Positions 3,125 through 56,162 are shown, counted from the stretch's first letter. The stretch: 64,000 nucleotides of DNA from Gammaproteobacteria bacterium (GCA_030835405.1 JAURPG010000106.1:6067-70066), one strand, 5' to 3'. Numbers and translations are program-made. The notes: generated by a model from the sequence alone, not told the origin.

Positions 3125-3825
3125 TTAAATATTGTAGTTATATTTATTTACTGCATCTCTTAACTCACTATACAGCGCATTGTCTTGCAAGTTTTTCCAA
3201 GTCACGCTGTCATCCCCGCTTTTGTCGCCATGTGTATTAAAGTCCTTTGGATGTTGCGCGAGTGCAGAATCTATTTTGGCCCAGGAAGCTTTAAATCCGA
3301 CTATATCAAGTATATTGGCAAGTAGATTACGGTCCAGGTCCTCAATTCTGTAGCGAAAGTAGTTTAGATGTTTCTGACGTTCTGCCTGCTCTGTAATAAG
3401 GTTCCAGTAAATCCAGTATTTTATTGATTTCTCAAACGGTGACCCGGGATTGATATCAGGGCAGTGTTGTAAAGCAAATGCGAGTGTGCGGACTACCCGC
3501 TCACGTTCAAAAAACCTGATTCTGAGCTTTGACCGGACGACTTCTAATGGATCACGTATCTGGTGAAAAACTATCGTCCCGGGGGGAACATATGGGAGAT
3601 ATGGTGCAGCTAACCATGATGATTCCCCCAATTTTGAAATACAGGAATACGCTCCGGGTATACAATTTCCTTTGCCTTTAGGAAAGTTGTTAATGTGTCA
3701 TCCGTTTTCAGGTTCCTTAAATTATAAAAACTTTCTTCGCCACAGGTGCATCCAAGTAAACCTAACAACGTAGCCATATACTGGGTTCCCGATCTACCAC
3801 AACCAGTAATGATAAATTGTTTCAA
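3125..3825 (-). pseudogene. Sulfotransferase split by a frameshift into two ORFs (3610-3825 N-terminal part, 3125-3631 C-terminal part)
   Basis: The N-terminal piece carries the PAPS 5'-phosphosulfate-binding loop (ITGCGRSGTQY). The C-terminal piece carries the 3'-phosphate-binding RDP-x5-S region (IRDPLEVVRSKL). The two pieces are in different frames and overlap at a C5/G5 homopolymer (3625-3629). Confidence 0.55.
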
Positions 3826-4976
3826 TTGGGCCTTCCTGTAACAATTGAATTTATGGCTAATATGAATCTTTCAGCAATTAGATCAAAACTCAGATTTCTA
3901 TCATAATAATCACGAATGGCATGGGAGTATTCTCCGTATTTTTCAGTGGGGATATCCAGTACCCTCTGTGATAATTCATCTGAATTACTAATATCAAATA
4001 ATGTACCAAACTGATTATTGCCAGTCAGGTACTGGAACGAAGGTATTTTTGTAACAACAGGTATAACCCCACATGCCATTGCTTCCACAAGGGAGTTTCC
4101 ACCATATTCAGTATGACTCGCCTGTAAAAAGAAATCTGCGCTGTTATAAAAATTTTCCATTTCATCAAAATCCATGGGGCCCAGTAAGTGCACGGCATTT
4201 CCAAGCTTGTCAGATTTCTGTAAAAAATCATTGACGGTATCAATCAGTTCATTGGTTTGATGGACCCAGTACAGTCGTGCACCAGGTCTCATCTGTAAAA
4301 TATTTTCAAATCCCATGAGTAAGGTTAAAGGATCTTTGACCGGATGAAGCCGGCTTGTAGCCACGCATATGGGATCCCCGGACATTCCGGTTCTGGCCCG
4401 CGCTTCTGCACGATCCAATCTACTGAAGAAACTTGATGTTTCCGGGCAAATTGATACACGAGTTGTTGGTGAAATTAAATTTGCCTCTTCCCATATTGCT
4501 TTTCTTTCAGGTGCATTGATAAGCAATACCGATATTTTTTCCATAGCCTGTTTTTGCAGGCTGCGATAATCATAGTCAGCTGCGGGGTTACTTCCATGAA
4601 AAGAAGCAGATAATATTATTGATCTTGAATTACAAACTTCGGCTACTGTTAATATATCGGCGGGTAATATACCAAAAATATGAATTATGTCAGGATTGAA
4701 TTCATTAATGACCCTGGTTAATGATTCAGGACTGATATGTTTTGACATTAAATTTTCAATGCCACCCGTAAATGGCCTGGATTCAATCGTACGAAGATGG
4801 CCAGAAGTAAAACTGAAAACCTTCTCACTGGAGTAACCCTGGACCCAGATTGCCTCATTTGATTTTTTTACCAAGGCTTTGGTGAATTCTCTGGGATGAA
4901 AATATTGTTTTACCAGGACATCCAGGGAACCAAAATTCCCATCAAAAATCGGGTTCAAAAGGATTATTTTCAACAT
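3822..4976 (-). CDS. Glycosyltransferase family 4 (GT-B fold, group 1)
   Basis: The C-terminal region has the GT4 sugar-donor-binding motif EYGGNSLVEAMACGVIPVVT (E-x7-E). Size is 384 aa. Confidence 0.75.
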   Translation of the reverse strand: MLKIILLNPIFDGNFGSLDVLVKQYFHPREFTKALVKKSNEAIWVQGYSSEKVFSFTSGHLRTIESRPFTGGIENLMSKHISPESLTRVINEFNPDIIHIFGILPADILTVAEVCNSRSIILSASFHGSNPAADYDYRSLQKQAMEKISVLLINAPERKAIWEEANLISPTTRVSICPETSSFFSRLDRAEARARTGMSGDPICVATSRLHPVKDPLTLLMGFENILQMRPGARLYWVHQTNELIDTVNDFLQKSDKLGNAVHLLGPMDFDEMENFYNSADFFLQASHTEYGGNSLVEAMACGVIPVVTKIPSFQYLTGNNQFGTLFDISNSDELSQRVLDIPTEKYGEYSHAIRDYYDRNLSFDLIAERFILAINSIVTGRPN

Positions 4977-5164: not shown

Positions 5165-5947
5165 TTAATCAACACATCCATTTTCAATAGATGACAGGCA
5201 TTTGTTATATGTTGCCACCGCTTCATTCAACAGGTGTGACGGAATATCAATTTTAACGCGGTCCTCTACCTTGAGAATTTTTCCTGATTTAATCCTGTTC
5301 GATGGGTCTCCACGATAACCGGTATATCTATATAATTTGTACGTAGTCGATAATGAATGTTTCAGGTTGAGAAATTTCTGCAATCTTTCGAGTGTGACGG
5401 AAGATTCTTCAATCAAGTCCTCGTATTTTATTAATATGGAATTATCTGGAAGAGAAACGCCTTTAGCAATTTGTTCAATATTATTTATTCGACTAATATA
5501 GTATCGTGTTCCGCGTTCAACCGGCCAATTACCATATATAGGTTCAAACGTATTGACTATGCTGGATATTGTTTCTTCGGGTCTTCTCAGCAGAAATATT
5601 CTTTTTAATCCCGGATAATTTAGCACGTCGATATTCGGTGTCATTTTTTCATGATTGATCTGGTCAATAATTATTTTTCCATGGCTGAGAATTATTCTTT
5701 GCTGTTTGCAAATATCCAGGGCCAGGGTATTAAGATCCTCGATATCGTGGTAAGTTTTATTTCTTTCGCCACCTGCAATTATTTCTGGATGACTTGCCAG
5801 TAAATGCAGTAATAAAGTAGAACCAGAGCGCATGTGCCCAAGGATAAATGCGTACTTTTCCTGGCATTGCAGCCGGTTAATATACACGACCAGTTGCTTC
5901 TGGAAATCTGAATACCATTTTATTAATCTCGATTCTTCTCTGTCCAT
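5165..5947 (-). CDS. PAPS-dependent sulfotransferase
   Basis: It has the ILGHMRSGSTLL P-loop-like 5'-PSB motif near the N-terminus and is 260 aa. Confidence 0.65.
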   Translation of the reverse strand: MDREESRLIKWYSDFQKQLVVYINRLQCQEKYAFILGHMRSGSTLLLHLLASHPEIIAGGERNKTYHDIEDLNTLALDICKQQRIILSHGKIIIDQINHEKMTPNIDVLNYPGLKRIFLLRRPEETISSIVNTFEPIYGNWPVERGTRYYISRINNIEQIAKGVSLPDNSILIKYEDLIEESSVTLERLQKFLNLKHSLSTTYKLYRYTGYRGDPSNRIKSGKILKVEDRVKIDIPSHLLNEAVATYNKCLSSIENGCVD

Positions 5948-6092
5948 GTTGTTATTCCGATGCAGGCTATTACCTCTATAAAAAAGAACCAGTTAGAATT
6001 ATTGCTGTAAACTCAATCATAAACAAATAATCAATTTATGTTGAATTATTCAATTGCTGTGACACCATAATTTTAGAAACTGAATATCAAAT

Positions 6093-7271
6093 ATGTCACT
6101 GGTTATAAAAAATGTAATGTTACCAGATTGTGATCTGGCGAATGCTTTCTGTTTATCAACGAATTCTAATTCAGTCTGTTTCCGGAGCGCTGACAGTTTC
6201 GGGAAAAATGATGATGTTCTTGATCTTGATGAAGGCATGATCGCATTTCCGGGTATTATTAATTCTCATGATCACCTTGATTTTAATGATTTCCCATTGC
6301 TTCAGACCAGGATTTACGATGACTATATCGACTGGGCAAAAGACATTCATGAAAATGATAATTTCAAATATCAGATCGCCAGTTCAAAAAAAATTCCTTA
6401 TGAGAATAAAATGTTAACTGGATTAATCAAAAATCTCGTTTGCGGGATTACAACAGTAGTCAATCATGGAATAAAATCCAATACCAGGTATGAAGGAATA
6501 GAAATCCACGATCACTGTAGAATTTTACACTCAGATAAATATGAAACATGGCTGCCGATTAAAATTAATATCCCGTTTAATACCGCACCGGTAACAATAC
6601 ATATAGGTGAAGGCAAGACGGGCAGAGTAAGGCAGGAGATTGGCAGGGTACTGAAGTATAATCTGTTAAATAAAAAAATTATCGGAATACATGGAATAAC
6701 AATGGACTGTGGACAGGCAAAAAAAATCACTGCGCTGGTATGGTGTCCAGAATCGAATATTCAGCTGTATGGAAGGACAGCTTCGGTCGGGGAACTTGGC
6801 AGGTATACATCAATACTATTTGGAACGGATTCGACACTTACAGCTGACTGGAATATATGGAAACACATCAGGACCGCGAGAAATCTGGCGTATTTAGGCG
6901 ACGAGGAATTATTTTATACCTTGAACAGTAACCCGGCCAGGATATGGGGTAAATCATCAGCAGAATGCTTGACTGGTATGCAGGTGCCTGATGTGGTGTT
7001 TGCAAGGCGTAGAAAAAAGGATTACTGGGACAGTTTTTACATGACAGATCCCGAAGTAATTATGCTTGTATTTAAAAATGGCAAACCGGTTTTAATTGAT
7101 CAATCCATTTTCAAAATTTTGCAAAAAAAAATGCCAGAGTATGCAAAGTGGGGAATGATCAGGGTCCAGGATTCAATAAAATATATTCCATCCAGCCTGC
7201 TCAGGCAGTTTCAAAATGGTTATATATTCAAACAGATGCCGGTCGAAATTTTAAACACAAGTATTAACTAA
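6093..7271 (+). CDS. Metal-dependent amidohydrolase (chlorohydrolase/cytosine-deaminase-like superfamily)
   Basis: GIINSHDHLDFN carries the HxH metal-binding motif at the first beta-strand, with further His and Asp residues downstream. Size is 392 aa. Confidence 0.6.
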   Translation: MSLVIKNVMLPDCDLANAFCLSTNSNSVCFRSADSFGKNDDVLDLDEGMIAFPGIINSHDHLDFNDFPLLQTRIYDDYIDWAKDIHENDNFKYQIASSKKIPYENKMLTGLIKNLVCGITTVVNHGIKSNTRYEGIEIHDHCRILHSDKYETWLPIKINIPFNTAPVTIHIGEGKTGRVRQEIGRVLKYNLLNKKIIGIHGITMDCGQAKKITALVWCPESNIQLYGRTASVGELGRYTSILFGTDSTLTADWNIWKHIRTARNLAYLGDEELFYTLNSNPARIWGKSSAECLTGMQVPDVVFARRRKKDYWDSFYMTDPEVIMLVFKNGKPVLIDQSIFKILQKKMPEYAKWGMIRVQDSIKYIPSSLLRQFQNGYIFKQMPVEILNTSIN

Positions 7272-7325
7272 CACGATATATTATTAGTCCACGCCTCATT
7301 ACAAAAAACAGGGACAGAAATCAGC

Positions 7326-8321
7326 ATGCCGGCAAATATGACAGCAGAAGATATTCTTGGATATCAGGGGAACCTGGATCATGAGAGAATTTACCCACTC
7401 CTGGGAGTGACTGTTAAAATTCGAAGTAACGATGTAAAGATAATTAAAAATGCCGATATTGCCCTGGGACACTGGAATAACGCTGGTAATGATTTCGATG
7501 TAGACAATTCAAACTTGTGTCTGGACATCATTTTACAGGAAGAAGCGGAAATTAATTCATCAGGGGAAGAACATTTATTTATTCACAGGTATCGCGATGA
7601 TATATACCTAGCAAATTGTGATAAAAATATACTCGTGGCATTTAGAAATGCAGGCAAGGGACTGGCTTATGTAACTGAAGGTTTGGTTAATGATATTCAG
7701 GGGTTTAACTGGTTTGTCGTTGAGGCATTGTCATTATTTCTCGTGACATATCGACGTCGTGTACCCGTTCATGCGTCAGCTGTAACGAATGGTAAACTGG
7801 CTGTTGCTTTTATGGGGAAAAGCGGTGCTGGTAAATCAAGTTTGGCCTATGTTTTTATGAAGCATGGGTTCGACCTTCTTGCTGAAGATGTGATCTATTT
7901 TGGGATGGAAGACGATTTTAGAATATGGGGAAACTCCACAAAAATCCATTTACTACCAGATGCAATAAAGCTGTTTCCAGAATTATCAAACTGTGTCCCT
8001 GTAAAAAGGCCAAACGGAAAAATTAAAATACAAGTACCGGTAAATGACGTCGGTAAGATAAAACCAGTTCATTGTGTAAAAAATATTGATATCTGCCTGC
8101 TAAAACCGGACCGTAACAGCAGGGACAGCCGGATTGAACCTATTACACCAGATTACCTCAGGGACTATCTATTGTCCTCATTGGAACCGGGTTTTAATAT
8201 TGAACTGGATAGTTTAATGATATCCATGGAAAAGTTACTAAAGCAAAGACTGTACCTTTTAACGGTAGGAAGCGATATTGATGCGGTTCCTGATCTTGTT
8301 TCGGAAATCCAGGATATATAA
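7326..8321 (+). CDS. HPr kinase (HprK) C-terminal-domain-like P-loop protein, the type of predicted peptide/small-molecule kinase found in RiPP and lasso-peptide clusters
   Basis: HASAVTNGKLAVAFMGKSGAGKSSLAYVFMKHGFDLLAEDVIYF contains a Walker A (GxSGxGKS) followed by the L-x-x-DD element typical of the HprK C-terminal domain. The N-terminal half is unrelated to HprK. Confidence 0.6.
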   Translation: MPANMTAEDILGYQGNLDHERIYPLLGVTVKIRSNDVKIIKNADIALGHWNNAGNDFDVDNSNLCLDIILQEEAEINSSGEEHLFIHRYRDDIYLANCDKNILVAFRNAGKGLAYVTEGLVNDIQGFNWFVVEALSLFLVTYRRRVPVHASAVTNGKLAVAFMGKSGAGKSSLAYVFMKHGFDLLAEDVIYFGMEDDFRIWGNSTKIHLLPDAIKLFPELSNCVPVKRPNGKIKIQVPVNDVGKIKPVHCVKNIDICLLKPDRNSRDSRIEPITPDYLRDYLLSSLEPGFNIELDSLMISMEKLLKQRLYLLTVGSDIDAVPDLVSEIQDI

Positions 8322-8420
8322 TACGATAAGCATGTAACTGTTTTATCAAAAAAAGATGAATGAAACATAAAAGTCACGTTTACGAGATGAGTTCTATAAA
8401 TATGAATATGGAGATTTTCA

Positions 8421-9854
8421 GTGGTTGACATACTCCTCGCCCATGCTTTTTATATTACCAATGATACTAAACAGCGTGAAGAAAAGTTTCGCCCATATCC
8501 GCCGCTAGCAACCTTGTATGCTGCAAGTATTTTGAGAGACTCCGGGTATGAAGTCGCACTGTATGATGCGACTCTTGAGCAAAATGAGGATTCATTTCAG
8601 GAAATTTTCAATGATGTTAACCCTCGTTTATTGATTATCTATGAGGACAATTTCAATTTTTTGAGCAAGATGTGCCTGACACATGTAAGGGAAGCCACGT
8701 TACGAATGGCAAAGACCGGAAAAGATGCAGGTACCTCGGTAATTGTATGTAGTTCAGATGCCAGTGATGACCCATCAACCTACCTGGCTTGTGGAGTAGA
8801 TTATGTCATCCTTGGAGAGGGTGATGTAACAGTTAAGGAACTATCAGATAATTTATTGCAACAGTCTTCAATGGACATTGGCACGATTCCCGGTATCGCT
8901 TATATCAATGGAGACAGGGACATTTCCCAGTCACCCAGGCGTATGAACCTTAGAGACCTTGACAGCATTCCTTTTCCTGCCAGAGACCTGGTTGATATTG
9001 AGAATTATAGAGACGCATGGGAAAGCGTACATGGTTATTTTAGCATGAGTATGGTTACCACCCGGGGATGTCCATATGCCTGTACCTGGTGTGCCAAACC
9101 TATCTGGGGAAAAAGCTATGCAGTCAGGTCACCCGAAAATGTTGCCGAAGAACAGGCGTTGTTGAAACAGCATTGTTCACCTGATCATATTTGGTTCATG
9201 GACGATATATTTGGACTTAAACCAGGCTGGATTGAAAGGTATTCACTGGAGGTAAATGCAAGGGAAGCAAATATCCCGTTTATGATACAGACGCGGGCAG
9301 ATTTAATGAATCCCGAAGTCGTTAAAAGCCTTGCCGATGCCAATTGTGAAGAAGTGTGGCTCGGGGCTGAAAGCGGTAGTCAATCGGTCCTTGATTCAAT
9401 GAAAAAGGGTATAACCGTAGAGCAGATTCATGAAGCCCGGCGGTTACTGGGTAATGAGGGTATCAGGACATGTTTTTTTATCCAGTTCGGTTATCCTGGG
9501 GAGACGCTGGAGGACATCAGCTTAACCGTGGACCTGGTACGATCCGCTTTACCAGACAACATAGGCGTCAGCGTAAGTTACCCCCTGCCGGGTACCGAAT
9601 TCCATGAACTTGTTATGAATGAGATTAATGAAAAAACCCACTGGAATGAAAGCAATGATCTTGAAATTATGTTTGAAGGCGCATATGATTCGAGCTATTA
9701 CCGTAAGCTTGGAAAATTCCTGCACCGTGATCTAGATGCCCGCCTGGGTATAAGCAATGAAGATTTGAATGTTTTGCAGTGTGAATGGGAACAGCTTGTT
9801 GATTCAGCACGGAATTATGAAGCCACTGCTTCAGAAACCAGTAATACTGTTTAA
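8421..9854 (+). CDS. B12-binding domain radical SAM enzyme (class B rSAM; probable methyltransferase or other carbon-centred modifier)
   Basis: The N-terminus is a Rossmann-like cobalamin-binding region (ILLAHAF...PPLATLYAASILRDSGYEVALYDA). The rSAM cluster is RGCPYACTWC (CxxxCxxC). The annotated start is GTG. The gene sits in an operon-like array with the next four genes. Confidence 0.8.
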   Translation: MVDILLAHAFYITNDTKQREEKFRPYPPLATLYAASILRDSGYEVALYDATLEQNEDSFQEIFNDVNPRLLIIYEDNFNFLSKMCLTHVREATLRMAKTGKDAGTSVIVCSSDASDDPSTYLACGVDYVILGEGDVTVKELSDNLLQQSSMDIGTIPGIAYINGDRDISQSPRRMNLRDLDSIPFPARDLVDIENYRDAWESVHGYFSMSMVTTRGCPYACTWCAKPIWGKSYAVRSPENVAEEQALLKQHCSPDHIWFMDDIFGLKPGWIERYSLEVNAREANIPFMIQTRADLMNPEVVKSLADANCEEVWLGAESGSQSVLDSMKKGITVEQIHEARRLLGNEGIRTCFFIQFGYPGETLEDISLTVDLVRSALPDNIGVSVSYPLPGTEFHELVMNEINEKTHWNESNDLEIMFEGAYDSSYYRKLGKFLHRDLDARLGISNEDLNVLQCEWEQLVDSARNYEATASETSNTV

Positions 9855-9870
9855 ACACGAGTGAGTATTC

Positions 9871-11277
9871 ATGCCTGACTTAATCCTGACACACGGTTAT
9901 TTCCTGTGTGAAGACCCAAAAGAACAGGAAATTATGAAACCATATGCCCCTCTGGGCCTGATGTATTTGTCTGCATATCTAAAGGGCAAAGGATTTAATG
10001 TCGAAATTTTTGATTCGATGTTTTCAAATCGAGAAACGCTGGAAGAATTTCTCAGAAATAATGCCAATGGTGTCCTTGGCATATATACAAATTTAATTAC
10101 CCGGTCGAGCGTACTCAATATTATTTCAATGGCAAAAAAACATGGATTTCAAGTCATTCTTGGCGGCCCTGAATCTGCAAACTATCCGCAAGAATATCTG
10201 AATCATGGTGCCGACGTGATTGTCCTGGGAGAAGGAGAACAGACCCTGGAAAAACTATTACCTGCCATTCAGAATCCCGGTTCGGCAGGCCTTCAGGCTG
10301 TTGATGGTATCGTTTTTAAAGATAAATCTGGTAACCTGATCACTACTAATCCGAGAATATCACCCAATGATCTTGCTATTTACCCCTGGCCCGACAGGGA
10401 ATCCATAGATATAAGGAAATATCTGCAGGTCTGGCGTGATCATCATGGGCTTGGCAGTATCAGTATGATTACTGCAAGGGGCTGTCCCTATCGTTGCACA
10501 TGGTGTTCCCATGCAGTTTACGGCTACAGCCATCGACGGCGTAAGCCGGCCGATTGTGCCAGTGAGCTTGACTACATCATGAATGAATATTCTCCGGATC
10601 AGATATGGTATGCGGACGATGTATTTACCATAAGCCATCCATGGTTATATGAGTATTCAGCCCAGTTAAAAAACAGGGGATTGAAAGTGCCGTTTGAAAC
10701 AATTTCCCGCGCAGACAGGCTAATGAAACCGGAAGTTTTGGACACGCTTGTAGAGATGGGTTGTGATCGAATCTGGATTGGCTCGGAGAGCGGCAGTCAA
10801 AAAATACTCGATGCAATGCAACGTGATGTGACAGTGGAGCAGATTCAGTGGGCCTCACATGAGCTGAAAAAAAGGGGGATAAAAGTCGGTATGTTTCTTA
10901 TGTGGGGTTACGGGAATGAAACACTTGAGGATATTGAAAAAACAGTGGAACACGTAAAAATTTCTGACCCGGATGTTTTTTTTACTACAATTGCCTATCC
11001 TATTAAAAATACGCCTTTTTATAACGAGTTCAGTGACAGCATAACAATGTCCGGAGATTGGGCTTCGGGTACGGATAGGGATTATAAAATATCAAATCAA
11101 CGGGGCCCTGAATATTATAAGGCTGCTGACATTCTGCTGTTTAATTCTGTTGAGGCTTCCCGTAATCAATATAGCGACCACAAAGAAAGTTTAATACATA
11201 AAAAACTTGCAGATGATGCAAGGTTATACTTACAGGAATATGAACGAAAGCACATCATCAATAAGACAGGTATTTAA
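9871..11277 (+). CDS. B12-binding domain radical SAM enzyme, a tandem paralogue of the upstream gene
   Basis: The architecture is the same: PYAPLGLMYLSAYLKGKGFNVEIFD followed by RGCPYRCTWC (CxxxCxxC). Blocks such as SPDQIWYADDVF match SPDHIWFMDDIF in the upstream paralogue. The gap to the upstream gene is 16 nt. Confidence 0.8.
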   Translation: MPDLILTHGYFLCEDPKEQEIMKPYAPLGLMYLSAYLKGKGFNVEIFDSMFSNRETLEEFLRNNANGVLGIYTNLITRSSVLNIISMAKKHGFQVILGGPESANYPQEYLNHGADVIVLGEGEQTLEKLLPAIQNPGSAGLQAVDGIVFKDKSGNLITTNPRISPNDLAIYPWPDRESIDIRKYLQVWRDHHGLGSISMITARGCPYRCTWCSHAVYGYSHRRRKPADCASELDYIMNEYSPDQIWYADDVFTISHPWLYEYSAQLKNRGLKVPFETISRADRLMKPEVLDTLVEMGCDRIWIGSESGSQKILDAMQRDVTVEQIQWASHELKKRGIKVGMFLMWGYGNETLEDIEKTVEHVKISDPDVFFTTIAYPIKNTPFYNEFSDSITMSGDWASGTDRDYKISNQRGPEYYKAADILLFNSVEASRNQYSDHKESLIHKKLADDARLYLQEYERKHIINKTGI

Positions 11278-12034
11278 TCAGCTTGCTGCACATTACGATA
11301 CGATATTTACAAATACCGATATTGGCAGGATGCTTCGACAACGTACACATGACCTGCTTAATGGAATGTTTACTCCGGGGCAAACAGTTCTTGTTCTAAA
11401 TTGTGGCACCGGTGAAGATGTTATTCACCTGGCCAGGCAGGGCATAAATGTTTTAGCATCGGATAACTCGGAAGAAATGATCAAGTTTGCAAAAATTAAA
11501 GTGAATCAAGCCGGTTTAAATCATATGGTTGAATTCAGGCAGATAAATTTTGATAAACTTGATTACAGCCTTTCCTCTGGAGAAACGTTTGACGGGATAA
11601 TATCTAATTTTGGTGGAATAAATTGCTCCTCAGACATATCGCAGGTAGTAAAAAATATTGCAGATTATCTGCGGCCGGGTGGCAAGCTCTACCTTTGTAT
11701 AATGGGGCAGTTCGTACCATGGGAGTGGTTATACCTGGGGGTAAGAGGGAAGTATAAGAGGATTTATCATAGATTCAGAGGTAGCTGTATATGGAGAGGA
11801 CAGGAAATAAAGTATTATTCCCCGGCTGAAATCGAGACGTATTTGTCGATACATTATCGATCTACTCAATGTAGTGGGCTTGGGTTTCTCATTCCTCCCA
11901 GTTATGCAGGAAAATTGTTCTCAAAATTCCCCCGTGTTTTTTATTTTTTGAACTGGGTTGAGAAACATTTAGAAACTTTTTTCCCAATTCCTTTGCTTAG
12001 TGATCACTTTGTTTTTAAATCAATAAGAAAGTGA
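11240..12034 (+). CDS. Class I SAM-dependent methyltransferase
   Basis: SAM motif I is VLVLNCGTGEDV, and a post-I acidic residue is present. The ORF is open from 11207, but the Met at 11240 avoids most of the overlap with the upstream gene. The stop overlaps the next start (ATGA). Confidence 0.7.
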   Translation: MNESTSSIRQVFNQLAAHYDTIFTNTDIGRMLRQRTHDLLNGMFTPGQTVLVLNCGTGEDVIHLARQGINVLASDNSEEMIKFAKIKVNQAGLNHMVEFRQINFDKLDYSLSSGETFDGIISNFGGINCSSDISQVVKNIADYLRPGGKLYLCIMGQFVPWEWLYLGVRGKYKRIYHRFRGSCIWRGQEIKYYSPAEIETYLSIHYRSTQCSGLGFLIPPSYAGKLFSKFPRVFYFLNWVEKHLETFFPIPLLSDHFVFKSIRK

Positions 12035-12954
12035 AACATTCCCGCGATTGGCAAGGAATATGTCCTGTCTGTAAATCAGAAATAGGAACCCTGACATGGC
12101 CGGGAAAGAATATTGATTGTGGTGATTGTCTGGAATCATTTAAATCAATAGAGGGGATTTATCAGCTTATACAACCAGGGCGTCTCAATGCCTATAAGCA
12201 GTTTCTGGACGATTATACCAGCATAAGAATTGCAGAAGGCCGGGGTGATCATGGCCATGATTACTATTGCCGACTGCCAGAGCCCACTGTGTCGGACCCA
12301 TTATCATGGCAATGGAAAATCAGAAGTAAGAGCTTCAAAACCCTGGTATCTGTACTGGATCTGGAATCTACCAGGCAACGCAGAATCCTTGATCTGGGTG
12401 CCGGAGTGGGGTGGTTGTGTCATCGTGTGGCATCATTGGGGCATTACCCCATAGCAATTGATATCAACATGGATGAAATGGATGGACTCAGGGCAGGAAG
12501 GTTTTATGACAGGAGCTGGCCCTGCATACAGGCTGAATTCGATAACTTGCCCATCCAGAATGAACAGGCAGATTTGGCCATATTCAATGCGAGCTTACAC
12601 TACAGCACAGACTATTACGGTACTCTGAAAGAAGCACTAAGGGTCCTGAGGGGGGATGGGCAGTTAGTGATAATCGATTCACCAATATACAGACGGCCCG
12701 ACAGTGGTATCAATATGAAGTTACAACGACACGAATTTTTTAATAAGGTATACGGTTTTAGATCTGACAGTATTGACAGTATTGAATTCCTGACCTGGGG
12801 AATGCTTGAAGAGTTGGAGAAAAAACTCGAAGTAAAATGGAGGATAATCAGGCCATGGTATGGATTACGATGGGCTATGCGCCCGCTGACATATGCAGTT
12901 AAAGAATCGCGCGAAGCATCAACATTTGCAATTTTAATGGGAACCCGGGCCTGA
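12031..12954 (+). CDS. Methyltransferase with an N-terminal 4-Cys zinc-ribbon (Trm112-like) domain
   Basis: The N-terminus has CPVC...CGDC. Downstream lies SAM motif I, ILDLGAGVGW. The gene is translationally coupled on both sides. Confidence 0.6.
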   Translation: MKHSRDWQGICPVCKSEIGTLTWPGKNIDCGDCLESFKSIEGIYQLIQPGRLNAYKQFLDDYTSIRIAEGRGDHGHDYYCRLPEPTVSDPLSWQWKIRSKSFKTLVSVLDLESTRQRRILDLGAGVGWLCHRVASLGHYPIAIDINMDEMDGLRAGRFYDRSWPCIQAEFDNLPIQNEQADLAIFNASLHYSTDYYGTLKEALRVLRGDGQLVIIDSPIYRRPDSGINMKLQRHEFFNKVYGFRSDSIDSIEFLTWGMLEELEKKLEVKWRIIRPWYGLRWAMRPLTYAVKESREASTFAILMGTRA

Positions 12955-13961
12955 TGAATAAATTGACATCCTTGCCTGCAAACGACGATATGGTTAAACA
13001 ACTACCAATCATGGTTTTAATGCTTAAATCAGATTGCAACTGTCGCTGCACGATGTGTGATATCTGGAAAGGAAATTCCAGCGAGTCACTGGAATATGAT
13101 GGTGTTAAGGATCTGGTGAAGCAACTTCAATCTCTAGATACACATGAGATTGTACTCAGTGGCGGCGAGCCATTGATGCACAGGGAAATCGAGTCGGTTT
13201 GCAGGTTATTGTCGACAATGAATTTCAGAGTCACCCTGATTACTACAGGATTGTTACTCAAACGTCATGCGCAATGGATTAGTAAATATATCGATCAAAT
13301 ATACATCAGTCTTGATGGACCAGAAAAAGTACATAATTCTATCAGGAACATTCCAGGTGCTTATGTAAAAATTAAAAAAGGTGTGGAAGCAGTCCGGCAT
13401 TACAGACCGGACATTAATATTGGAGCACGTTGTACCATACAAAAACAAAATTACAGGTATATCGGTGATACTGTCGATGCAGCCAGGGAGTTGGGTATGA
13501 ACACCATCAGTTTCCTGGCAGCAGATGTCAAGGCTGAAGTTTTTGGCAGGACCAGTGACTGGAAAGATAACGGGATTGCCCTGACCGGTACAGAGCTTTC
13601 TGAGCTTGAAGATATTCTTCAGCAATTTTTCATAAATTATAAAAATGATTTTGATTCAGGATTTATAGTTGAAGATAGAAATAAATTACAGACAAAACTA
13701 CTAGATTATTATCACGCCCTCAGTACGGACAGGAATTTCCCCGGGGTGGATTGTAACGCACCATGGGTTTCAGCAGTCGTAGAAACAAACGGAAAAGTAA
13801 GGCCCTGTTTTTTTCATAAACCCTATGATGAAGCTCTGGATAATAAATCCGTCAATGAGATCATTAATTCTGATACGGCAAAAAAATGGAGAAAAGAACT
13901 GGACGTCAAAACCAACGATATCTGTCGAAGCTGTGTTTGTTCGCTTTCGTATGGCGTATGA
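12954..13961 (+). CDS. Radical SAM enzyme with a C-terminal SPASM/twitch-like Cys cluster
   Basis: The rSAM cluster is CNCRCTMC (C-x3-C-x2-C). The C-terminal region has additional cysteines (C...C...CRSCVC) compatible with auxiliary Fe-S cluster ligation. Confidence 0.7.
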   Translation: MNKLTSLPANDDMVKQLPIMVLMLKSDCNCRCTMCDIWKGNSSESLEYDGVKDLVKQLQSLDTHEIVLSGGEPLMHREIESVCRLLSTMNFRVTLITTGLLLKRHAQWISKYIDQIYISLDGPEKVHNSIRNIPGAYVKIKKGVEAVRHYRPDINIGARCTIQKQNYRYIGDTVDAARELGMNTISFLAADVKAEVFGRTSDWKDNGIALTGTELSELEDILQQFFINYKNDFDSGFIVEDRNKLQTKLLDYYHALSTDRNFPGVDCNAPWVSAVVETNGKVRPCFFHKPYDEALDNKSVNEIINSDTAKKWRKELDVKTNDICRSCVCSLSYGV

Positions 13962-14039
13962 GCACACAAAATATTGTGCGGTTATTCGTCTGTAGAACGT
14001 GTCCGATAATTATAGCCTGCAACGATCAGTATTAAGTAT

Positions 14040-15230
14040 TTGTATTATTATTCATTAATCATATTGAGTCAGTTAGATTTGAGTCCGTCACTGAACATCG
14101 TTTTTATCACCCCGGGAGGTGTGGACAGGAGTGGCCGTGAAAGGGTCATACCACACTTTTTATGGCTGCTTGAAAAGCTCTCGTTAAATCATAATGTAAA
14201 AGTGATAAGTTTATTTCAGTATGATTCTGCCTGTGAATATTCACTTAACGGCATACAGATTTCTGTTCCCGGGAAGATACGGCAAGACTGGAAAACTGAT
14301 AAGGAACCCGGGACAGTATTGAATGATTTGTACGAAGCATGTATCGCATACCTGGATCCTGCTGAACCGGTTGACATTGTCCATGGCTTGTGGGGATTTC
14401 AGGCCGGTTGGATTGCCACCAGAATTGCATCTTCGTTAAAGATTCCTTCTGTAGTGAGTTTGATGGGAGCCGAGTTTGTATCTTTTCCGGACATCAAATA
14501 TGGTGGGCAGTACTGGGAACATCAACGGTTGACATTAAATGATACTTTAAAAAATGCCACTGCATTAACTGTTGCAAGTCACTTTATGCAAGATATGGCT
14601 TCCGCATACAGTATAGAAACTGATTACATACCTTTTGGCGTACATGAGTCCTGCTTTCAGGACAACGGGGCACTGGATATTCCAACCTGGCGACTCCTGA
14701 CTGTTGCGAGTATAAATAGAATAAAGGATTTTTTTACCTTGATTGAGGCCTTCAGGATAGTTGTTGATGAAATCAATGATGTTCAACTGGATATTATTGG
14801 TGAAGATGTCATGGATGAGGAAATACAGGCGTTATCTGACAGATTATGTCTGACTAATCATGTTAACTTTCATGGATTCCTGCCAAATGACGAGATACGG
14901 AAATATTTCCAGAGGGCACATCTGTATGTGGTTACCTCGATAAACGAAACCGGACCAATAGCCATGCTGGAAGCTGCGGCTTGTAAAGTAGCAACTGTGG
15001 GAACCAAAGTTGGATATGTATCTGACTGGGACGGTAAACGCTCACTGGCTGTGGAGTCCCAGAGCCCTGGTAAGCTTGCAGTGCAGATAATCTATCTGAT
15101 AAAGCACGAACCAGTCCGAAAAAATCTCGGTATGGCCGCATATAAATGGGTTCGGGAGTATGATGTAAACTGGACTTCTAACAGACTAACTAAACTTTAT
15201 CTTGACCTGATAAATAATCATATGGATTAA
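14040..15230 (+). CDS. Glycosyltransferase family 4 (group 1); the true start is probably downstream of the annotated ATG
   Basis: The C-terminal region has ETGPIAMLEAAACKVATVGT, the E-x7-E GT4 signature. The first 15 or so codons (MYYYSLIILSQLDL...) look non-coding. A TTG near IVFITPGG is a plausible alternative start. Confidence 0.65.
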   Translation: MYYYSLIILSQLDLSPSLNIVFITPGGVDRSGRERVIPHFLWLLEKLSLNHNVKVISLFQYDSACEYSLNGIQISVPGKIRQDWKTDKEPGTVLNDLYEACIAYLDPAEPVDIVHGLWGFQAGWIATRIASSLKIPSVVSLMGAEFVSFPDIKYGGQYWEHQRLTLNDTLKNATALTVASHFMQDMASAYSIETDYIPFGVHESCFQDNGALDIPTWRLLTVASINRIKDFFTLIEAFRIVVDEINDVQLDIIGEDVMDEEIQALSDRLCLTNHVNFHGFLPNDEIRKYFQRAHLYVVTSINETGPIAMLEAAACKVATVGTKVGYVSDWDGKRSLAVESQSPGKLAVQIIYLIKHEPVRKNLGMAAYKWVREYDVNWTSNRLTKLYLDLINNHMD

Positions 15231-16483: not shown

Positions 16484-18973
16484 ATGAAAATTAACGTCCA
16501 TATATGTAAATTTCCCATTCATGCATTGATATGTATTATTTTAACACCCGGGTTACTTCAATCTGCTGAGTTACCGGAAAGATCAAATCATCTCAATTCC
16601 GGGGTATCTTCGAAAGGGAGCCTGGTGGCAAAGAGTGACTTTAACAAGTTCCAGGAAAGATTAAGAACTCCCGGTGGTTTTCTGATACCCGATGCCCCTG
16701 AACAGCAGTCCTTAAAATCTGTCTCTGACAGTGAGTGGTTATATTCACTATCTATTAATGCCGGGTACATTAATGCTTCCGGTAATGAAAATTCTGCCCA
16801 GTTTAAAGAATACGGGGACTGGGATAATGGACTCGTTTTGAAACGATTTTCAGGTGTACTTGAAAATCCCGGGACTGCCCACTACTTCAAGTTAGGCGGT
16901 GGGAGTTTGGGCAGAAACGATCAGTTTTTGAATTTTTCTTCCGGTAAATATGGAAAATATAATTTTTCCCTGGCGTTTGATGCTACGCCTCATGATTTTG
17001 CAAATAATGCCCAGGTGCTTTGGGATGGCGCAGGAAGCAATATCCTTACATTGCCAGACGGCCTCGTCCCCGGAAACAGTACGGCAGCAGATGTCACTAT
17101 GGCGCTTCAGGTGATTGATGGTTCTGATATAAAACTTGAAAGGGACAAGCTCAGTGTTGCTTTTGACGTCGATTATCTACCAACTCTGAATTTCCATGCT
17201 GAGGGTTCTGTCGAATGGCGGGATGGTGGCAGGCCTATTGGTGGAGGATTTTCCTATCCTGGTTCCGGCCAGGTCACTGAAATAATTGAGGCGATAGATT
17301 ACACGACCTATGAAATCAATTTAGGTCTCGCATACAGCGGTACAGGCAGGCAGCTGAATTTTTCGTATACGGGATCCCTGTTCGTAAATAATTACAGCGC
17401 CCTGACGTGGGAAAATCCAGGCGTTTCACCGTTTACGGCATATGCACCGCGAAGGGGCCGTTATGCGCTTGCACCTGACAACGAGTTTCATAATTTTAGA
17501 GGTGATTTTGTAACCAAATTACCATTCTGGAATAGTAGGTTAACTGTAGTGTCATCGTATTCTATTTCAAGCCAGAATGATCTATTGATTCCTCCAACAA
17601 TCAGCTCTGGAACGATTACAAGCGGGCCCAGTACCATTAATCTCAATCTTTGGAATACGGTTGAGGCACTTTCCACAGACAGGGCCAATGCAGAAATAAG
17701 AAATTTGAATTTACAGTCAAGAATTATTTTAAACCCTGTCAGGAAAATAAGGTTAAGGGGCGAAGTAAAATATACTGATAGGGACAACAGGACAGATTAT
17801 ACAGCATTAAATCCACTTACCGGGGAGTATGGATATATTGTAATGGATGGTGGCCTGGATGCATTAGCACCATCCCTGACAGGTATTTATAATCCTTTAC
17901 GTCCGGGAAGCCGGGTCAGGTTTAAAAATATTCCTTTTGACAAAGACACATTCCTGATTACTGCAGGGGTGGATTACCTGGTGACCAATAAACTGAAGAT
18001 GGGTTTGAGATATTATCGGGACCATCAGGATTATCGTCACAGGGAAGTGGATAAACTAATCGAGGACAGAATTAAGCTTAACCTTGTTTATCGGGACCGT
18101 AAAATAGGCACGCTCAGGACGTCATATGAATACCGTGACAGGGATAGTGATGGTTATAATTTTAACCCGTACGAGGAATTCTATACTTCGTCGTTACCTG
18201 CTTATATACCTCGCCTTGCAGATGGCGATGATCCTCATACGTTGAGTGATTTGCGGAAGTATGACGTCGCAAGCAGAAAGAAACATACATTAAAAGGCAA
18301 ATACAATTCTATCATTGTTGAAAATCTTGATCTTACACTAACCGGTCAATATTCAGATGAAAATTTTGATGCACAGTATGGATTAAGGGAAAAAGATTCA
18401 TTATCTGCAAACCTGGATTTGAACGTATATATGGGTTTAAATAAAAGTATATATGCTTATTACTCATTTCAATCCAGCAAAAGTTATTATGCAAATATAA
18501 ATAATGCAGGCGGGGCATTTTCTGATCCATTTGCCGGTGGACCCCGGTATCCTCTGGATCGTGCGTGGACTGGAAGTGCGAGGGAAAAAAACAATAGCAT
18601 TGGGGCAGGGATTAATTTTGGTGTTGACGATGTATTAATTAATCTGAGTTATACGTACATCAGGTCCAGGTCCAGGTTTCAATATAATTTTAATTCAACT
18701 GCAGCTTTTAATAATACATTAACCGAACAGGAAGTTGGCACCGGGTTTCCCGACCAGATATTCAGCAATCATCACCTGCAATCAAACATAACGTGGTCGG
18801 TTCGAGAAAATACAAAACTGAATTTTCTCTACAGGTATGAGACTGAAAAAGTAAGTGATTTTCATTACCAGGGGATAACAAATTCTATTGTTGATGACTC
18901 AATTCTGTTGCTTGCCTTGCCGGAAAATTTTAATAGTCATGTGGTAGGGTTATTTATTGAGAACAATTTTTGA
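16484..18973 (+). CDS. Outer-membrane beta-barrel porin of the MtrB/MtoB/PioB family, sheath for the decaheme cytochrome
   Basis: It is 829 aa and lies 21 nt downstream of the decaheme gene. It has a signal peptide, the alternating hydrophobic/aromatic composition of beta-barrels rich in Y/N/G/S/T, and a C-terminal ...IENNF ending in an aromatic residue as outer-membrane proteins typically do. Confidence 0.65.
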   Translation: MKINVHICKFPIHALICIILTPGLLQSAELPERSNHLNSGVSSKGSLVAKSDFNKFQERLRTPGGFLIPDAPEQQSLKSVSDSEWLYSLSINAGYINASGNENSAQFKEYGDWDNGLVLKRFSGVLENPGTAHYFKLGGGSLGRNDQFLNFSSGKYGKYNFSLAFDATPHDFANNAQVLWDGAGSNILTLPDGLVPGNSTAADVTMALQVIDGSDIKLERDKLSVAFDVDYLPTLNFHAEGSVEWRDGGRPIGGGFSYPGSGQVTEIIEAIDYTTYEINLGLAYSGTGRQLNFSYTGSLFVNNYSALTWENPGVSPFTAYAPRRGRYALAPDNEFHNFRGDFVTKLPFWNSRLTVVSSYSISSQNDLLIPPTISSGTITSGPSTINLNLWNTVEALSTDRANAEIRNLNLQSRIILNPVRKIRLRGEVKYTDRDNRTDYTALNPLTGEYGYIVMDGGLDALAPSLTGIYNPLRPGSRVRFKNIPFDKDTFLITAGVDYLVTNKLKMGLRYYRDHQDYRHREVDKLIEDRIKLNLVYRDRKIGTLRTSYEYRDRDSDGYNFNPYEEFYTSSLPAYIPRLADGDDPHTLSDLRKYDVASRKKHTLKGKYNSIIVENLDLTLTGQYSDENFDAQYGLREKDSLSANLDLNVYMGLNKSIYAYYSFQSSKSYYANINNAGGAFSDPFAGGPRYPLDRAWTGSAREKNNSIGAGINFGVDDVLINLSYTYIRSRSRFQYNFNSTAAFNNTLTEQEVGTGFPDQIFSNHHLQSNITWSVRENTKLNFLYRYETEKVSDFHYQGITNSIVDDSILLLALPENFNSHVVGLFIENNF

Positions 18974-19957: not shown

Positions 19958-21181
19958 ATGAATGATAATACATATGCAAGCAATAATGGTGAACTTGTTC
20001 TACTTTCTACCCGCCAACATATGGGCCGGGAAACGGCGGAAAAAATCAGTCTGTTATTTAAAACAGAACTGGACTGGAAAAAAATAGTTTCAATTGCAAA
20101 AAGAAACAAAGTCGTTCACCTGGTAGATAAAACCATGACCGAACACTTTGACGGCATGGTTGATTCAGAAGATTTGCAGGCACTTACTGATGAATCGCAG
20201 GTGCATTTTAAAAGTAATGAGGATAGTCTTGATTTGTTATTGGATATCAAGACACTGTTGTTGTCTGAAAGCATCCCCGTCATTTTCTTTAAGGGTATTA
20301 TCTTTGCCCATGTGTATAACAAGGACTATAAATTTCGAACACAGGGCGATATTGACATACTGGTCAGACCGGAAGATTTCCTGAAAGCAAGGGATATACT
20401 AGTAAGAAATGGTTTTGAGTCTGTTTATTTCGGTCATGCTGAAGTGTCAACTGTCCAGGCACAACTGGGCAGGAGCGACAGGCGAGCCAGCGTTGACTTG
20501 CACTATGGGGTCACCCCCCAGTACCAGCAGACCAATATGGATGAGGCATTAAGCGGAAGTAAATTTGACAAAAAATACCGTAATAAAATCGTCAAAAACC
20601 GTACCTACTGGTTTTGTCAATTTCAAACTGAAGAAATCTGGAAACGCAAAATCCAGATTGAGATAGAAGGCGAAACCATTACCACGCTGTCCCACGAAGA
20701 TACGCTCCTGGTGGCTGTCATTCATGCGGCAAAAGAAAACTGGAGATCGATGAGCAGAATAAGTGATATCACTGCGATTATAGAAACAAGCGGAAACCTG
20801 AACTGGGAAATTATCTATGAAACGGTAAGTGGATTGGGCTTTTTAAAAAAGTTTTATCTCGGTATCAGGTTAGCAAACGAGATGTATGATGTTGAATTGC
20901 CTGTAAATGTAATCAGGATGATGAATAAACATGGTTCAAAGTATCTCGCCAGACAGATTATCTTTAGACTGACCCTGGATAACTTTACTGTTGATATGGA
21001 AGAATTCAGGCGAATCGTTGCAATTATGACGATGGATTCAATCACAGATTTTTTCAGGTACCTGCAATATGTATTCAATACTCCGGCGGGTCCAACCGGC
21101 AAGGAGATAACCCAGGGAAATTTCCTGGGCTTTTTAAAGGTATTATCCGGTCAATATATACGGAAATTTCTATCCCGCTAA
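19958..21181 (+). CDS. Nucleotidyltransferase-family protein (uncharacterised NTP_transf_5-like type), as found beside HprK-like kinases and sulfotransferases in RiPP clusters
   Basis: It has the QGDIDILVRPEDF acidic motif characteristic of this nucleotidyltransferase fold. Size is 407 aa. Confidence 0.5.
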   Translation: MNDNTYASNNGELVLLSTRQHMGRETAEKISLLFKTELDWKKIVSIAKRNKVVHLVDKTMTEHFDGMVDSEDLQALTDESQVHFKSNEDSLDLLLDIKTLLLSESIPVIFFKGIIFAHVYNKDYKFRTQGDIDILVRPEDFLKARDILVRNGFESVYFGHAEVSTVQAQLGRSDRRASVDLHYGVTPQYQQTNMDEALSGSKFDKKYRNKIVKNRTYWFCQFQTEEIWKRKIQIEIEGETITTLSHEDTLLVAVIHAAKENWRSMSRISDITAIIETSGNLNWEIIYETVSGLGFLKKFYLGIRLANEMYDVELPVNVIRMMNKHGSKYLARQIIFRLTLDNFTVDMEEFRRIVAIMTMDSITDFFRYLQYVFNTPAGPTGKEITQGNFLGFLKVLSGQYIRKFLSR

Positions 21182-31969: not shown

Positions 31970-32056
31970 TGGTGCCGGGAAAGGGAATCGAACCCCCACT
32001 CAGTTGCCTGAACCGGATTTTGAATCCGGCGCGTCTACCAGTTCCGCCACCCCGGC
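31970..32056 (-). tRNA. leuX: tRNA-Leu(CAA), class II tRNA with a long variable arm
   Basis: The reverse complement reads GCCGGGGTGGCGGAACTGGTAGACGCGCCGGATTCAAAATCCGGTTCAGGCAACTGAGTGGGGGTTCGATTCCCTTTCCCGGCACCA. The anticodon stem-loop is CCGGA-TTCAAAA-TCCGG with anticodon CAA. GTTCGATTC is the T-loop, and there is a 3' CCA. Confidence 0.9.
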
Positions 32057-55826: not shown

Positions 55827-56162
55827 GGGGAGTCAGCCAGGCAATCGCCCTTTTTATAGAGGGAGGAAAGTCCGGGCTCCACAGGGCAAGACGCCAGGTA
55901 ACTCCTGGGCGGCGTGAGCCGATGGAAAGTGCCACAGAAAATATACCGCCTGTTGAGGGTAAGGGTGAAATGGTGTGGTAAGAGCACACCGCGTATCTGG
56001 TAACAGATATGGCAGGGTAAACCCCGTCTGGAGCAAGGCCAAATAGGGGAACGTAGGTGCGCCCACACCGTTCCCGGGTAGGCCGCTGGAGGTGTACGGT
56101 GACGTACATCCAAGATAAATGATTGTCCAAGACAGAACCCGGCTTATCGGCTGACTCACTAT
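55827..56162 (+). ncRNA. rnpB: RNase P RNA, bacterial type A
   Basis: It has the universally conserved GGAGGAAAGTCCGGGCTCCACAGGGCA (P4/CR-I) and GGTAAGAGCGCACC-like block (GGTAAGAGCACACC). P1 pairs gagtcagcc (55830-55838) with ggctgactc (56149-56157). The 3' end is followed by a T-run (attttttgatattttt). Confidence 0.9.

Follow-up and report, generated by a model that had tools for sequence, protein, structure and literature searches.

Cobalamin (B12)-dependent and SPASM-type radical S-adenosylmethionine (SAM) enzymes are known from antibiotics, cofactors, lipids and peptides, and in a 2026 review of the B12-dependent radical SAM (B12-rSAM) enzymes the terms polysaccharide, glycan and sugar do not occur. 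The described systems that come closest to the locus presented here are the glutamine C-methyltransferase of methyl-coenzyme M reductase (QCMT, PDB 9CCB; PMC12931638), the aminoglycoside enzymes AprD4, GenK and GenD1, the cytosylglucuronate decarboxylase BlsE, the deaminases TM0936, PA3170 and DadD, the porin-cytochrome conduits MtoAB, PioAB and MtrAB, and the tailoring trio of lasso peptides (paeninodin kinase, pseudomycoidin PsmN and a sulfotransferase), in which the C-terminal Ser is phosphorylated by a kinase and a nucleotidyltransferase places a hexose on the phosphate (PMC8498205). Here we describe a module of seven genes (encoding a deaminase-type amidohydrolase, an HprK-like kinase, two B12-rSAM enzymes, two methyltransferases and a SPASM radical SAM (rSAM) enzyme) found in a 64-kb stretch of DNA of an uncultured gammaproteobacterium (JAURPG010000106.1:6067-70066; hereafter the window, whose own positions are used throughout). 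We consider it probable that the module is the tailoring part of a horizontally mobile, low-GC island for a cell-surface glycan. No NCBIfam equivalog or PADLOC model covers the module, and we found no published description of it. Sugar-tailoring cassettes of glycan loci are already known; unexpected here is a lineage-restricted tie to a porin-cytochrome conduit.

A recurrent radical SAM module in surface-glycan loci

The island occupies ~2-22 kb of the window, with a GC content of 38-44% as compared with ~50% in the flanks, and the genes outside it are housekeeping chromosomal ones (secD, murA, hisD, cytochrome bc1, RNase P RNA, ftsI, murE and murF). Island genes are 54-68% identical to those of the L001/L127 lineage, while the flanking SRAP and DUF1592 genes reach 73% and 82%, respectively; low GC content together with higher divergence is typical of surface-glycan loci. 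All module open reading frames (ORFs) lie on the + strand (Table 1): a gap of 16 nt (9854/9871) separates the two B12-rSAM genes, and overlapping ORFs follow up to 13961. The tightly packed, co-oriented gene block 6093-15230 is presumably one operon. The preliminary description of this DNA had already assigned the five genes from 8421 to 13961 to one operon, and its gene coordinates, gap and overlaps are borne out.

The occurrence of the module in other genomes was assessed in a total sample of ~140 loci. Relatives of the HprK-like protein (33-56% identity) were found on metagenomic contigs and metagenome-assembled genome (MAG) contigs carrying the same operon, with the common order kinase, one or two B12-rSAM genes, methyltransferase, zinc-ribbon methyltransferase and SPASM rSAM, and commonly with a family 4 glycosyltransferase (GT4) thereafter. 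The close orthologs of the whole operon showed 41-68% identity and were likewise followed by GT4 (in L007 by GT4 and a Bac_transf initiating transferase), and in L001 an NDP-sugar epimerase/dehydratase gene lies upstream of the amidohydrolase. With the kinase alignment as seed, 48 loci were retrieved from GTDB genomes, mostly from Acidobacteriota, with others from Chloroflexota, Gemmatimonadota and Acidimicrobiia. In many of them tblastn placed homologs of the window proteins beside the kinase, namely of the B12-rSAM (41-57% identity), the zinc-ribbon methyltransferase (37-48%), the SPASM rSAM (37-43%), the first methyltransferase (26-36%) and the amidohydrolase (24-30%). When these loci were merged with the related ones fetched earlier (54 non-redundant loci, with families defined by crude ORF clustering), at least two module families were present in 20 of the 54. 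Sixteen of these 20 module-positive loci have glycosyltransferase or export/polymerase families within <=20 kb, and 13 have NTP_transf_5. By Pfam, the recurrent neighbour families are NTP_transf_5, Wzz/GNVR, Poly_export+SLBB (Wza-like), Wzi, Wzy_C, GT4, GT87 and GT1.

Seeding with the amidohydrolase extended the distribution to Pedobacter sp. LMG 31464 (L142) and a second Bacteroidota genome (L143), in which B12-rSAM, methyltransferase and SPASM genes adjoin it amid GT4, DUF1972-GT4, Wzy_C, ABC exporter and Bac_transf genes, with no kinase. An Ignavibacteria MAG (L144) has the amidohydrolase homolog beside B12-rSAM and methyltransferase genes, surrounded by GT87, GT9 and a Polysacc_synt flippase. 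The module is thus present in polysaccharide assembly loci of Acidobacteriota, Bacteroidota, Ignavibacteria, Chloroflexota, Gemmatimonadota, Actinobacteriota and Gammaproteobacteria; 20 or more loci from no fewer than seven phyla contain it, and the surface-polysaccharide locus is its setting. Its core consists of amidohydrolase, B12-rSAM and methyltransferase, usually joined by the SPASM rSAM, with the kinase and NTP_transf_5 as a frequent accessory pair.

Three claims of the preliminary description do not survive this comparison. The set is no orphan; the core scaffold enzymes said to be missing are the island's own glycosyltransferases (with full Wzy- or ABC-type machinery in related loci); and the combination, for which it could name no pathway class, can be placed in surface-glycan tailoring. 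From its pair of suggestions, a peptide pathway of the RiPP type (ribosomally synthesised and post-translationally modified peptides) or a tailored, aminoglycoside-like glycan, the comparative context favours the glycan.

Additional pairs of B12-rSAM and methyltransferase genes adjoin the main module in L009 (5293-9025) and L059 (4792-6902), a recurrence that may mark the paired enzymes as functional couples. In L009 the extra pairs are accompanied by a flavin reductase, the main module has a PhyH dioxygenase at its far end, and two paralogous HprK-like genes have a TetR regulator between them.

Enzymes of the module and their neighbours

Both B12-rSAM proteins combine an N-terminal B12-binding domain with a CxxxCxxC rSAM core, as class B enzymes do (PF02310 at 32.8 and 56.9 bits, cut-off 32.1; PF04055 at 79 and 73 bits), a class that also holds non-methylating members (OxsB, BchE and AprD4-like enzymes). 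With 31.5% identity to each other they are, by sequence, paralogs rather than twins. The first is the best conserved component of the module across distant cross-phylum loci (41-65% identity, several phyla), and its closest PDB relatives are QCMT (9ccb, E 2.6e-20) and AprD4 (E 2.5e-19). Being about equally near to an enzyme that acts on a protein and one that acts on an aminoglycoside sugar, it leaves the substrate class unsettled, and hence it is genomic context that does most of the work in what follows. The QCMT family model (TIGR04014) matches the first B12-rSAM at 117 bits, below the 360-bit family cut-off, and these bacteria have no methyl-coenzyme M reductase, the neighbours here being glycan genes. 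AprD4, GenK and GenD1 share with the enzymes of the window a B12-binding-type Rossmann domain and the CxxxCxxC core, and their pathways, like the module, place them alongside SAM methyltransferases, a kinase and glycosyltransferases. The similarity is nevertheless at superfamily level only (NF033070 at 87 bits, cut-off 500), and theirs are clusters for pseudo-oligosaccharide antibiotics, whereas the module sits in a polysaccharide-assembly context.

The third rSAM enzyme has its CxxxCxxC motif at residues 28-35, no N-terminal peptide-recognition extension, and a SPASM match above cut-off (PF13186 at 33.9 bits, cut-off 21.5). Its C-terminus retains only five conserved Cys (267, 285, 324, 327 and 329) before the protein ends at residue 335, as compared with seven in a full SPASM domain, so that the motif appears truncated or twitch-like. 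A look-up of its exact sequence returned no recorded contig, though the sequence is present among protein clusters. The best PDB relative is BlsE, a sugar-nucleoside enzyme (E 1.7e-10). BlsE and other twitch/SPASM rSAM enzymes of sugars resemble the window protein in being short, in lacking a peptide-recognition domain and in having a reduced auxiliary-cluster Cys motif; however, TIGR04466 reaches only 51 bits (cut-off 400), in an alignment that spans the rSAM core only.

Both methyltransferases are of class I. The ORF of the first opens at a TTG (11207), the gene call in L004 corresponds to 11216, and an ortholog overlaps its upstream gene by 38 nt, equivalent to an ATG at 11240 in the window; the likely start is this ATG, or else 11216 as called in L004. 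In the second, the zinc-ribbon residues Cys 11, 14, 30 and 33 are kept in 10-11 of 14 homologs, and identity in related loci is 37-66%.

The kinase-like protein stays under every family cut-off that it approaches: PF07475 (Hpr_kinase_C, 25.5 against 33.3 bits), TIGR04355 (26 against 200), TIGR04352 (23.7 against 200) and TIGR00679 (21.7 against 240). Its alignment shows an invariant GxxGxGKS P-loop and invariant G167, K170, S171, H149 and D188; its profile has HprK/P as top PDB match (E 1.5e-6), and its predicted model (predicted local distance difference test, pLDDT, 86) has PEPCK as top Foldseek match. PEPCK shares its fold with the HprK/P kinase domain.

The amidohydrolase itself has no Pfam match, and neither did phmmer find one in PDB, so that profile and model were needed; more than 2000 homologs of the protein carry PF01979. 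The residues H59xH61, H170-x-G-E173, H200 and D246 are invariant in the family and, judged as motifs, match what the superfamily's deaminase branch shows for metal binding and HxxE, the same set as in TM0936, PA3170 and DadD. Against PDB the profile placed TM0936, a deaminase of S-adenosylhomocysteine (SAH) and methylthioadenosine (MTA), first (E 3e-9). The AlphaFold2 model is a confident barrel (pLDDT 89), for which Foldseek returned MTA/adenosine deaminases (4gbd, 4dzh, 4f0r and 4dyk) and then isocytosine, guanine and aminofutalosine deaminases, with template-modelling scores of 0.6-0.69 at 12-15% identity; the protein could instead deaminate or hydrolyse a pathway intermediate. DadD of M. 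jannaschii recycles 5'-deoxyadenosine. The amidohydrolase gene abuts rSAM or methyltransferase genes in all contexts examined, and with five SAM-consuming enzymes as neighbours the removal of by-products is a logical role for it: motifs and model suggest that it may deaminate 5'-deoxyadenosine, SAH or MTA, the inhibitory by-products of these five. Deamination of a nucleobase-bearing intermediate is equally allowed, and a role as sugar N-deacetylase is less likely.

Most of what the preliminary description said of these proteins stands: the two B12-rSAM paralogs, both class I methyltransferases, including the zinc-ribbon one, and the SPASM rSAM were recovered with Pfam/NCBIfam domains and motifs, and all three CxxxCxxC motifs are present. 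It went too far in calling the B12-rSAM enzymes twins; its HPr-kinase-like P-loop protein has the P-loop and the HprK/PEPCK fold and remains below Pfam/TIGRFAM cut-offs; and what it took for a generic amidohydrolase belongs to that superfamily and looks like a nucleoside/nucleobase deaminase. On sequence criteria, the module proteins all join known superfamilies as new members that score under threshold.

We reason that the operon 6093-15230 would act on a glycoconjugate assembled by the nearby GT4 and family 2 glycosyltransferase (GT2), decorating one of its sugar residues or a substituent that such a sugar bears. Unactivated carbons would be the target of the two B12-rSAM enzymes, for which C-methylation is the likeliest reaction (dehydration as by AprD4 is also conceivable); the two methyltransferases would add O- or N-methyl groups, and the short SPASM/twitch rSAM could oxidise, decarboxylate or epimerise the sugar by radical chemistry. 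The kinase would phosphorylate a hydroxyl, a phosphate that NTP_transf_5 may then extend (the lasso-peptide trio, whose three protein types stand together here too, may be a plausible template for such a phospho-linked decoration), the sulfotransferase would add sulfate, and the amidohydrolase would either clear 5'-deoxyadenosine and SAH or deaminate a nucleobase-bearing intermediate.

Table 1. Genes of the island, its downstream border and the RNA genes of the window
Coordinates	Strand	Feature	Evidence
3125-3825	-	split ORF, 71 aa + 168 aa	one frameshift near a G5 run at ~3610-3631
3822-4976	-	GT4 glycosyltransferase, divergent from the module	Glycos_transf_1, 60.6 bits; 60% identity to ortholog in L001
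5165-5947	-	sulfotransferase	Sulfotransfer_3, 54.4 bits; 56% identity to ortholog in L001
6093-7271	+	amidohydrolase-superfamily enzyme, deaminase (cog0402-like) type	homologs, motifs, model
7326-8321	+	HprK/PEPCK-fold P-loop kinase-like protein	sub-threshold Hpr_kinase_C, P-loop, model
8421-9854	+	B12-binding rSAM enzyme 1	PF02310 + PF04055, CPYACTWC
9871-11277	+	B12-binding rSAM enzyme 2, paralog of enzyme 1	PF02310 + PF04055, CPYRCTWC
11207-12034	+	class I SAM methyltransferase	Methyltransf_25/31/11
12031-12954	+	class I SAM methyltransferase with N-terminal four-Cys zinc ribbon	Pfam
12954-13961	+	rSAM enzyme with short SPASM/twitch-type C-terminus	Radical_SAM, Fer4_12, SPASM above cut-off
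14040-15230	+	GT4 glycosyltransferase directly downstream of the module	Glycos_transf_1, 92.9 bits
15527-16462	+	periplasmic DmsE/MtrA/MtoA-family decaheme c-type cytochrome	TIGR03508, signal peptide
16484-18973	+	MtrB/PioB-family outer-membrane porin, decaheme partner	PF11854, 342 bits
18998-19927	+	GT2 glycosyltransferase gene, single frame with three in-frame TAG	TAG at 19343, 19400 and 19535
19958-21181	+	NTP_transf_5 nucleotidyltransferase-fold protein	PF14907, 142 bits
21289-25090	+	DUF1592/DUF1588/PSCyt-domain protein (823 aa) and DUF1552 (HXXSHH) protein	
25118-26677	+	ankyrin-repeat protein (519 aa)	
31970-32056	-	tRNA-Leu(CAA)	Rfam
55829-56162	+	RNase P RNA class A	Rfam, 334 bits

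The genes that flank the module complete the picture of the island. A GT4 gene stands directly after the module in L001 and L007 as well, and in L015 a similar one lies immediately upstream of the HprK-like gene. NTP_transf_5, for which phmmer found no match in PDB, adjoins HprK-like genes in 15 distant loci. The two GT4 genes, one sulfotransferase and NTP_transf_5 confirm the flanks as previously described, with the exception of a second sulfotransferase (3125-3825), which proved to be frameshifted and, even when its fragments were fused, gave no Pfam match that would support this identity. A second assembly (L004) shows the split too, and the N-terminus reads GCGRSGT, P-loop-like and reminiscent of the loops with which sulfotransferases bind 3'-phosphoadenosine 5'-phosphosulfate; the ORF is possibly a degraded sulfotransferase whose membership in the island is uncertain.

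The GT2 gene, whose interruption the preliminary description overlooked, matches an intact ortholog (L127:13467-14384) at 70% identity over 305 aa. Its three in-frame TAG codons align to the Gln codons CAG, CAA and CAA of this ortholog, there is no frameshift, and the true stop is TAA. The same three codons occur in a second MAG assembly (L141, 2 differences in 930 aligned bases). TAG serves as an ordinary stop for other genes of the window, and no suppressor tRNA was found within it, so the sequence can be read either as a recent triple-amber pseudogene or as a gene in which read-through inserts Gln.

Downstream, the island is bordered by the DUF1592 protein, whose 82% identity in the L127 lineage is above that of every island gene, and by the DUF1552 protein; the ankyrin-repeat protein beyond them has sub-threshold matches to Legionella Ank effectors and MzaA. 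An Rfam scan of the window recovered ordinary housekeeping RNAs only (Table 1), with no riboswitch or other RNA within the island, and scans for promoters and terminators returned the same counts as in shuffled sequence. Membership in an anti-phage defence system was considered and rejected: PADLOC gave no specific match, and its generic ones were of the rSAM core to pVip and of a methyltransferase domain to mad2.

A porin-cytochrome conduit beside the module

The most unusual neighbour of the module, likewise overlooked before, is a decaheme cytochrome with its porin partner, placed directly after the GT4 gene and followed by GT2 and NTP_transf_5. The cytochrome has 10 CXXCH motifs, and both proteins exceed the curated cut-offs (TIGR03508, 264.5 bits against 192.2; TIGR03509, 257.7 bits against 240.05), so that the pair has the same make-up as MtoAB, PioAB and MtrAB, a decaheme with an adjacent porin. 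It differs from them in being embedded in a glycan island and in having no MtrC, CymA, MtoD or PioC partner among the neighbouring genes. We found no description in the literature of a porin-cytochrome pair within a glycan island, and pangenome papers on Gallionellaceae and Zetaproteobacteria mention no rSAM or methyltransferase genes beside iron-oxidation genes.

Pair and module occur together in the window, L001/L127, L009 and L059, on varied sides and strands; in L061 the decaheme lies beside the module at a contig edge, and in L066 and L067, a separate lineage (decaheme identity 62-63%), the pair is beside module genes. As a reciprocal test, 79 metagenome loci were retrieved with the decaheme, and a neighbour-joining tree of the decahemes was built. 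In one decaheme clade, module genes were present in all six members with informative flanks. Outside that clade there were two further module positives (L061 and L036), and 16 loci with adequate flanks were negative. L036, from an Acidobacteriaceae MAG, holds the full rSAM module and, at 5388-8470 (- strand), genes for a multiheme cytochrome (344 aa) and an unannotated protein of 682 aa, placed between Wza/Wzz/GT9 genes on one side and GT4, kinase, NTP_transf_5, Bac_transf and module genes on the other. Pfam does not recognise the 682-aa protein, BLASTP aligns one weak segment of it with MtrB (E 8e-4), and it is perhaps a porin that has diverged.

The linkage between module and conduit is therefore non-random but partial, as the majority of module loci are free of a cytochrome and the majority of decaheme loci of the module. 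It fits a surface glycan adapted to extracellular electron exchange, and modification of the conduit proteins themselves by the module is less likely. That module and MtoAB/PioAB-type conduit form one functional unit, in which either a methylated, sulfated and possibly phosphorylated glycan serves extracellular electron exchange or the conduit proteins are modified, is an idea that we put forward tentatively and hold to be rather unlikely. If they did form one unit, the glycan might hold iron minerals away from the conduit, position them, or anchor and shield the cytochrome; and, if true, polysaccharide would be the substrate of an undescribed class B rSAM chemistry, linked to the respiration or oxidation of metals, that arose in both Gammaproteobacteria and Acidobacteriota.

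Alternative products and the meaning of the module

Several observations weigh against a role in surface-glycan tailoring. The 64-kb window has no detectable homolog of Wzz, Wza, Wzy or Wzi and no flippase, polymerase, chain-length or export gene; the glycan genes that it does hold are the two GT4 genes, the interrupted GT2, the sulfotransferase and NTP_transf_5, as compared with the full Wzy- or ABC-type gene sets of related module loci. Bac_transf matched none of the scanned ORFs of the window, in which initiating transferases were not specifically searched for. Two island genes are disrupted (3125-3825 and GT2), the best solved and curated relative of the first B12-rSAM modifies a protein, the characterised relatives of the kinase phosphorylate proteins or peptides, and all matches of module proteins to named NCBIfam equivalogs are far below cut-offs. 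Moreover, ORF calling was crude in high-GC loci, and the locus counts are approximate. The glycan acceptor in this organism could be lipopolysaccharide, a capsule encoded elsewhere, a glycolipid or a protein.

The best surviving alternative is that the module makes a diffusible or membrane small molecule, be it an aminoglycoside-like pseudo-oligosaccharide, a glycolipid or methylated lipid, or a phosphonate/phosphinate. Such a product would agree with a window that has no polymerase, flippase or exporter, and aminoglycoside pathways do combine B12-rSAM C-methyltransferases, N-methyltransferases and kinases (e.g., GenK, GenD1, GenN and GenP). The NCBIfam matches that point in this direction (PhpK-type P-methyltransferases, HpnJ/HpnR, the ladderane lipid rSAM and AprD4) are, however, all 3- to 8-fold under their cut-offs, related loci carry polymer machinery, and the window contains no PEP mutase, 2-deoxy-scyllo-inosose synthase, squalene-hopene cyclase or similar scaffold gene. 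We regard this alternative as doubtful.

Less probable again is protein maturation, in which the module would methylate, phosphorylate or glycosylate the decaheme or the MtrB-like porin next to it. The recurrent neighbourhood in differing orientations (window, L001/L127, L009, L059, L061, L066/L067 and L036) and the decaheme clade with the module in every informative member speak for it, as do the protein substrates of QCMT and of the HprK relatives and the fact that some SPASM enzymes mature proteins (e.g., anSME). Yet no cytochrome lies near the module in 14 of the 20 module-positive loci, nor in L142-L144, the 16 adequately flanked decaheme loci have no module, and the glycosyltransferase/export context accounts for the module without a protein target; we consider such maturation improbable.

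Weakest of all is a RiPP pathway with its precursor gene elsewhere: the target of kinase, NTP_transf_5 and sulfotransferase would be a peptide, as with lasso peptides that become phosphorylated or glycosylated, and methylation and cross-linking of this peptide would fall to the B12-rSAM and SPASM enzymes. Lasso clusters do have accessory genes for HPr-kinase homologs, a nucleotidyltransferase and a sulfotransferase (PMC8498205). B12-rSAM and SPASM enzymes are frequent in RiPP clusters, with sub-threshold NCBIfam matches here to ApyD, PapB and the SCIFF maturase. Furthermore, many distant HprK-like homologs carry the ScmC domain (PF27840), which we take to be part of a putative peptide-maturation cassette. 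Against this, the window has no lasso cyclase, protease, PqqD or RiPP recognition element (RRE), transporter or precursor, the HprK-like protein is below equivalog cut-offs, and the partners of the three proteins are polysaccharide genes. Pfam and NCBIfam found neither an Asn-synthase-like cyclase nor a transglutaminase-like B protease among the larger ORFs of 1-30 kb, and, in keeping with the preliminary description, the window contains no lasso, YcaO, Lan, polyketide synthase or nonribosomal peptide synthetase genes. The precursor that had not been seen in the intergenic gaps did not emerge from comparison either: small ORFs in the gaps are not conserved, those shared by the window and related loci were artefacts (opposite-strand ORFs and a split-ORF fragment), and neither PqqD/RRE nor a precursor family turned up among 91 small ORFs from 19 module loci. 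With its rSAM core starting at residue 28, the SPASM enzyme has no N-terminal RRE, the N-termini of the B12-rSAM enzymes are B12-binding domains, and the module is located inside Wzy/Wza/ABC polysaccharide loci. Failing all the defining features that could be examined, the RiPP pathway is not favoured, and we rate it as highly improbable.

Surface-glycan tailoring thus remains the reading that we favour. The presence of the module in glycan loci of at least seven phyla, together with the more than 2000 homologs of its amidohydrolase, points to a common, unexamined radical modification of bacterial surface sugars, and cultured carriers (e.g., Pedobacter sp. LMG 31464, Acidipila sp. EB88 with locus L039, and Granulicella) make the module testable. 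Should the amidohydrolase be an in-cluster scavenger of by-products, it would be useful for in vitro work with SAM-consuming enzymes. The linkage to the conduit, in turn, suggests a genetic handle on the surface adaptation of metal-respiring or metal-oxidising bacteria, the iron oxidisers among them.

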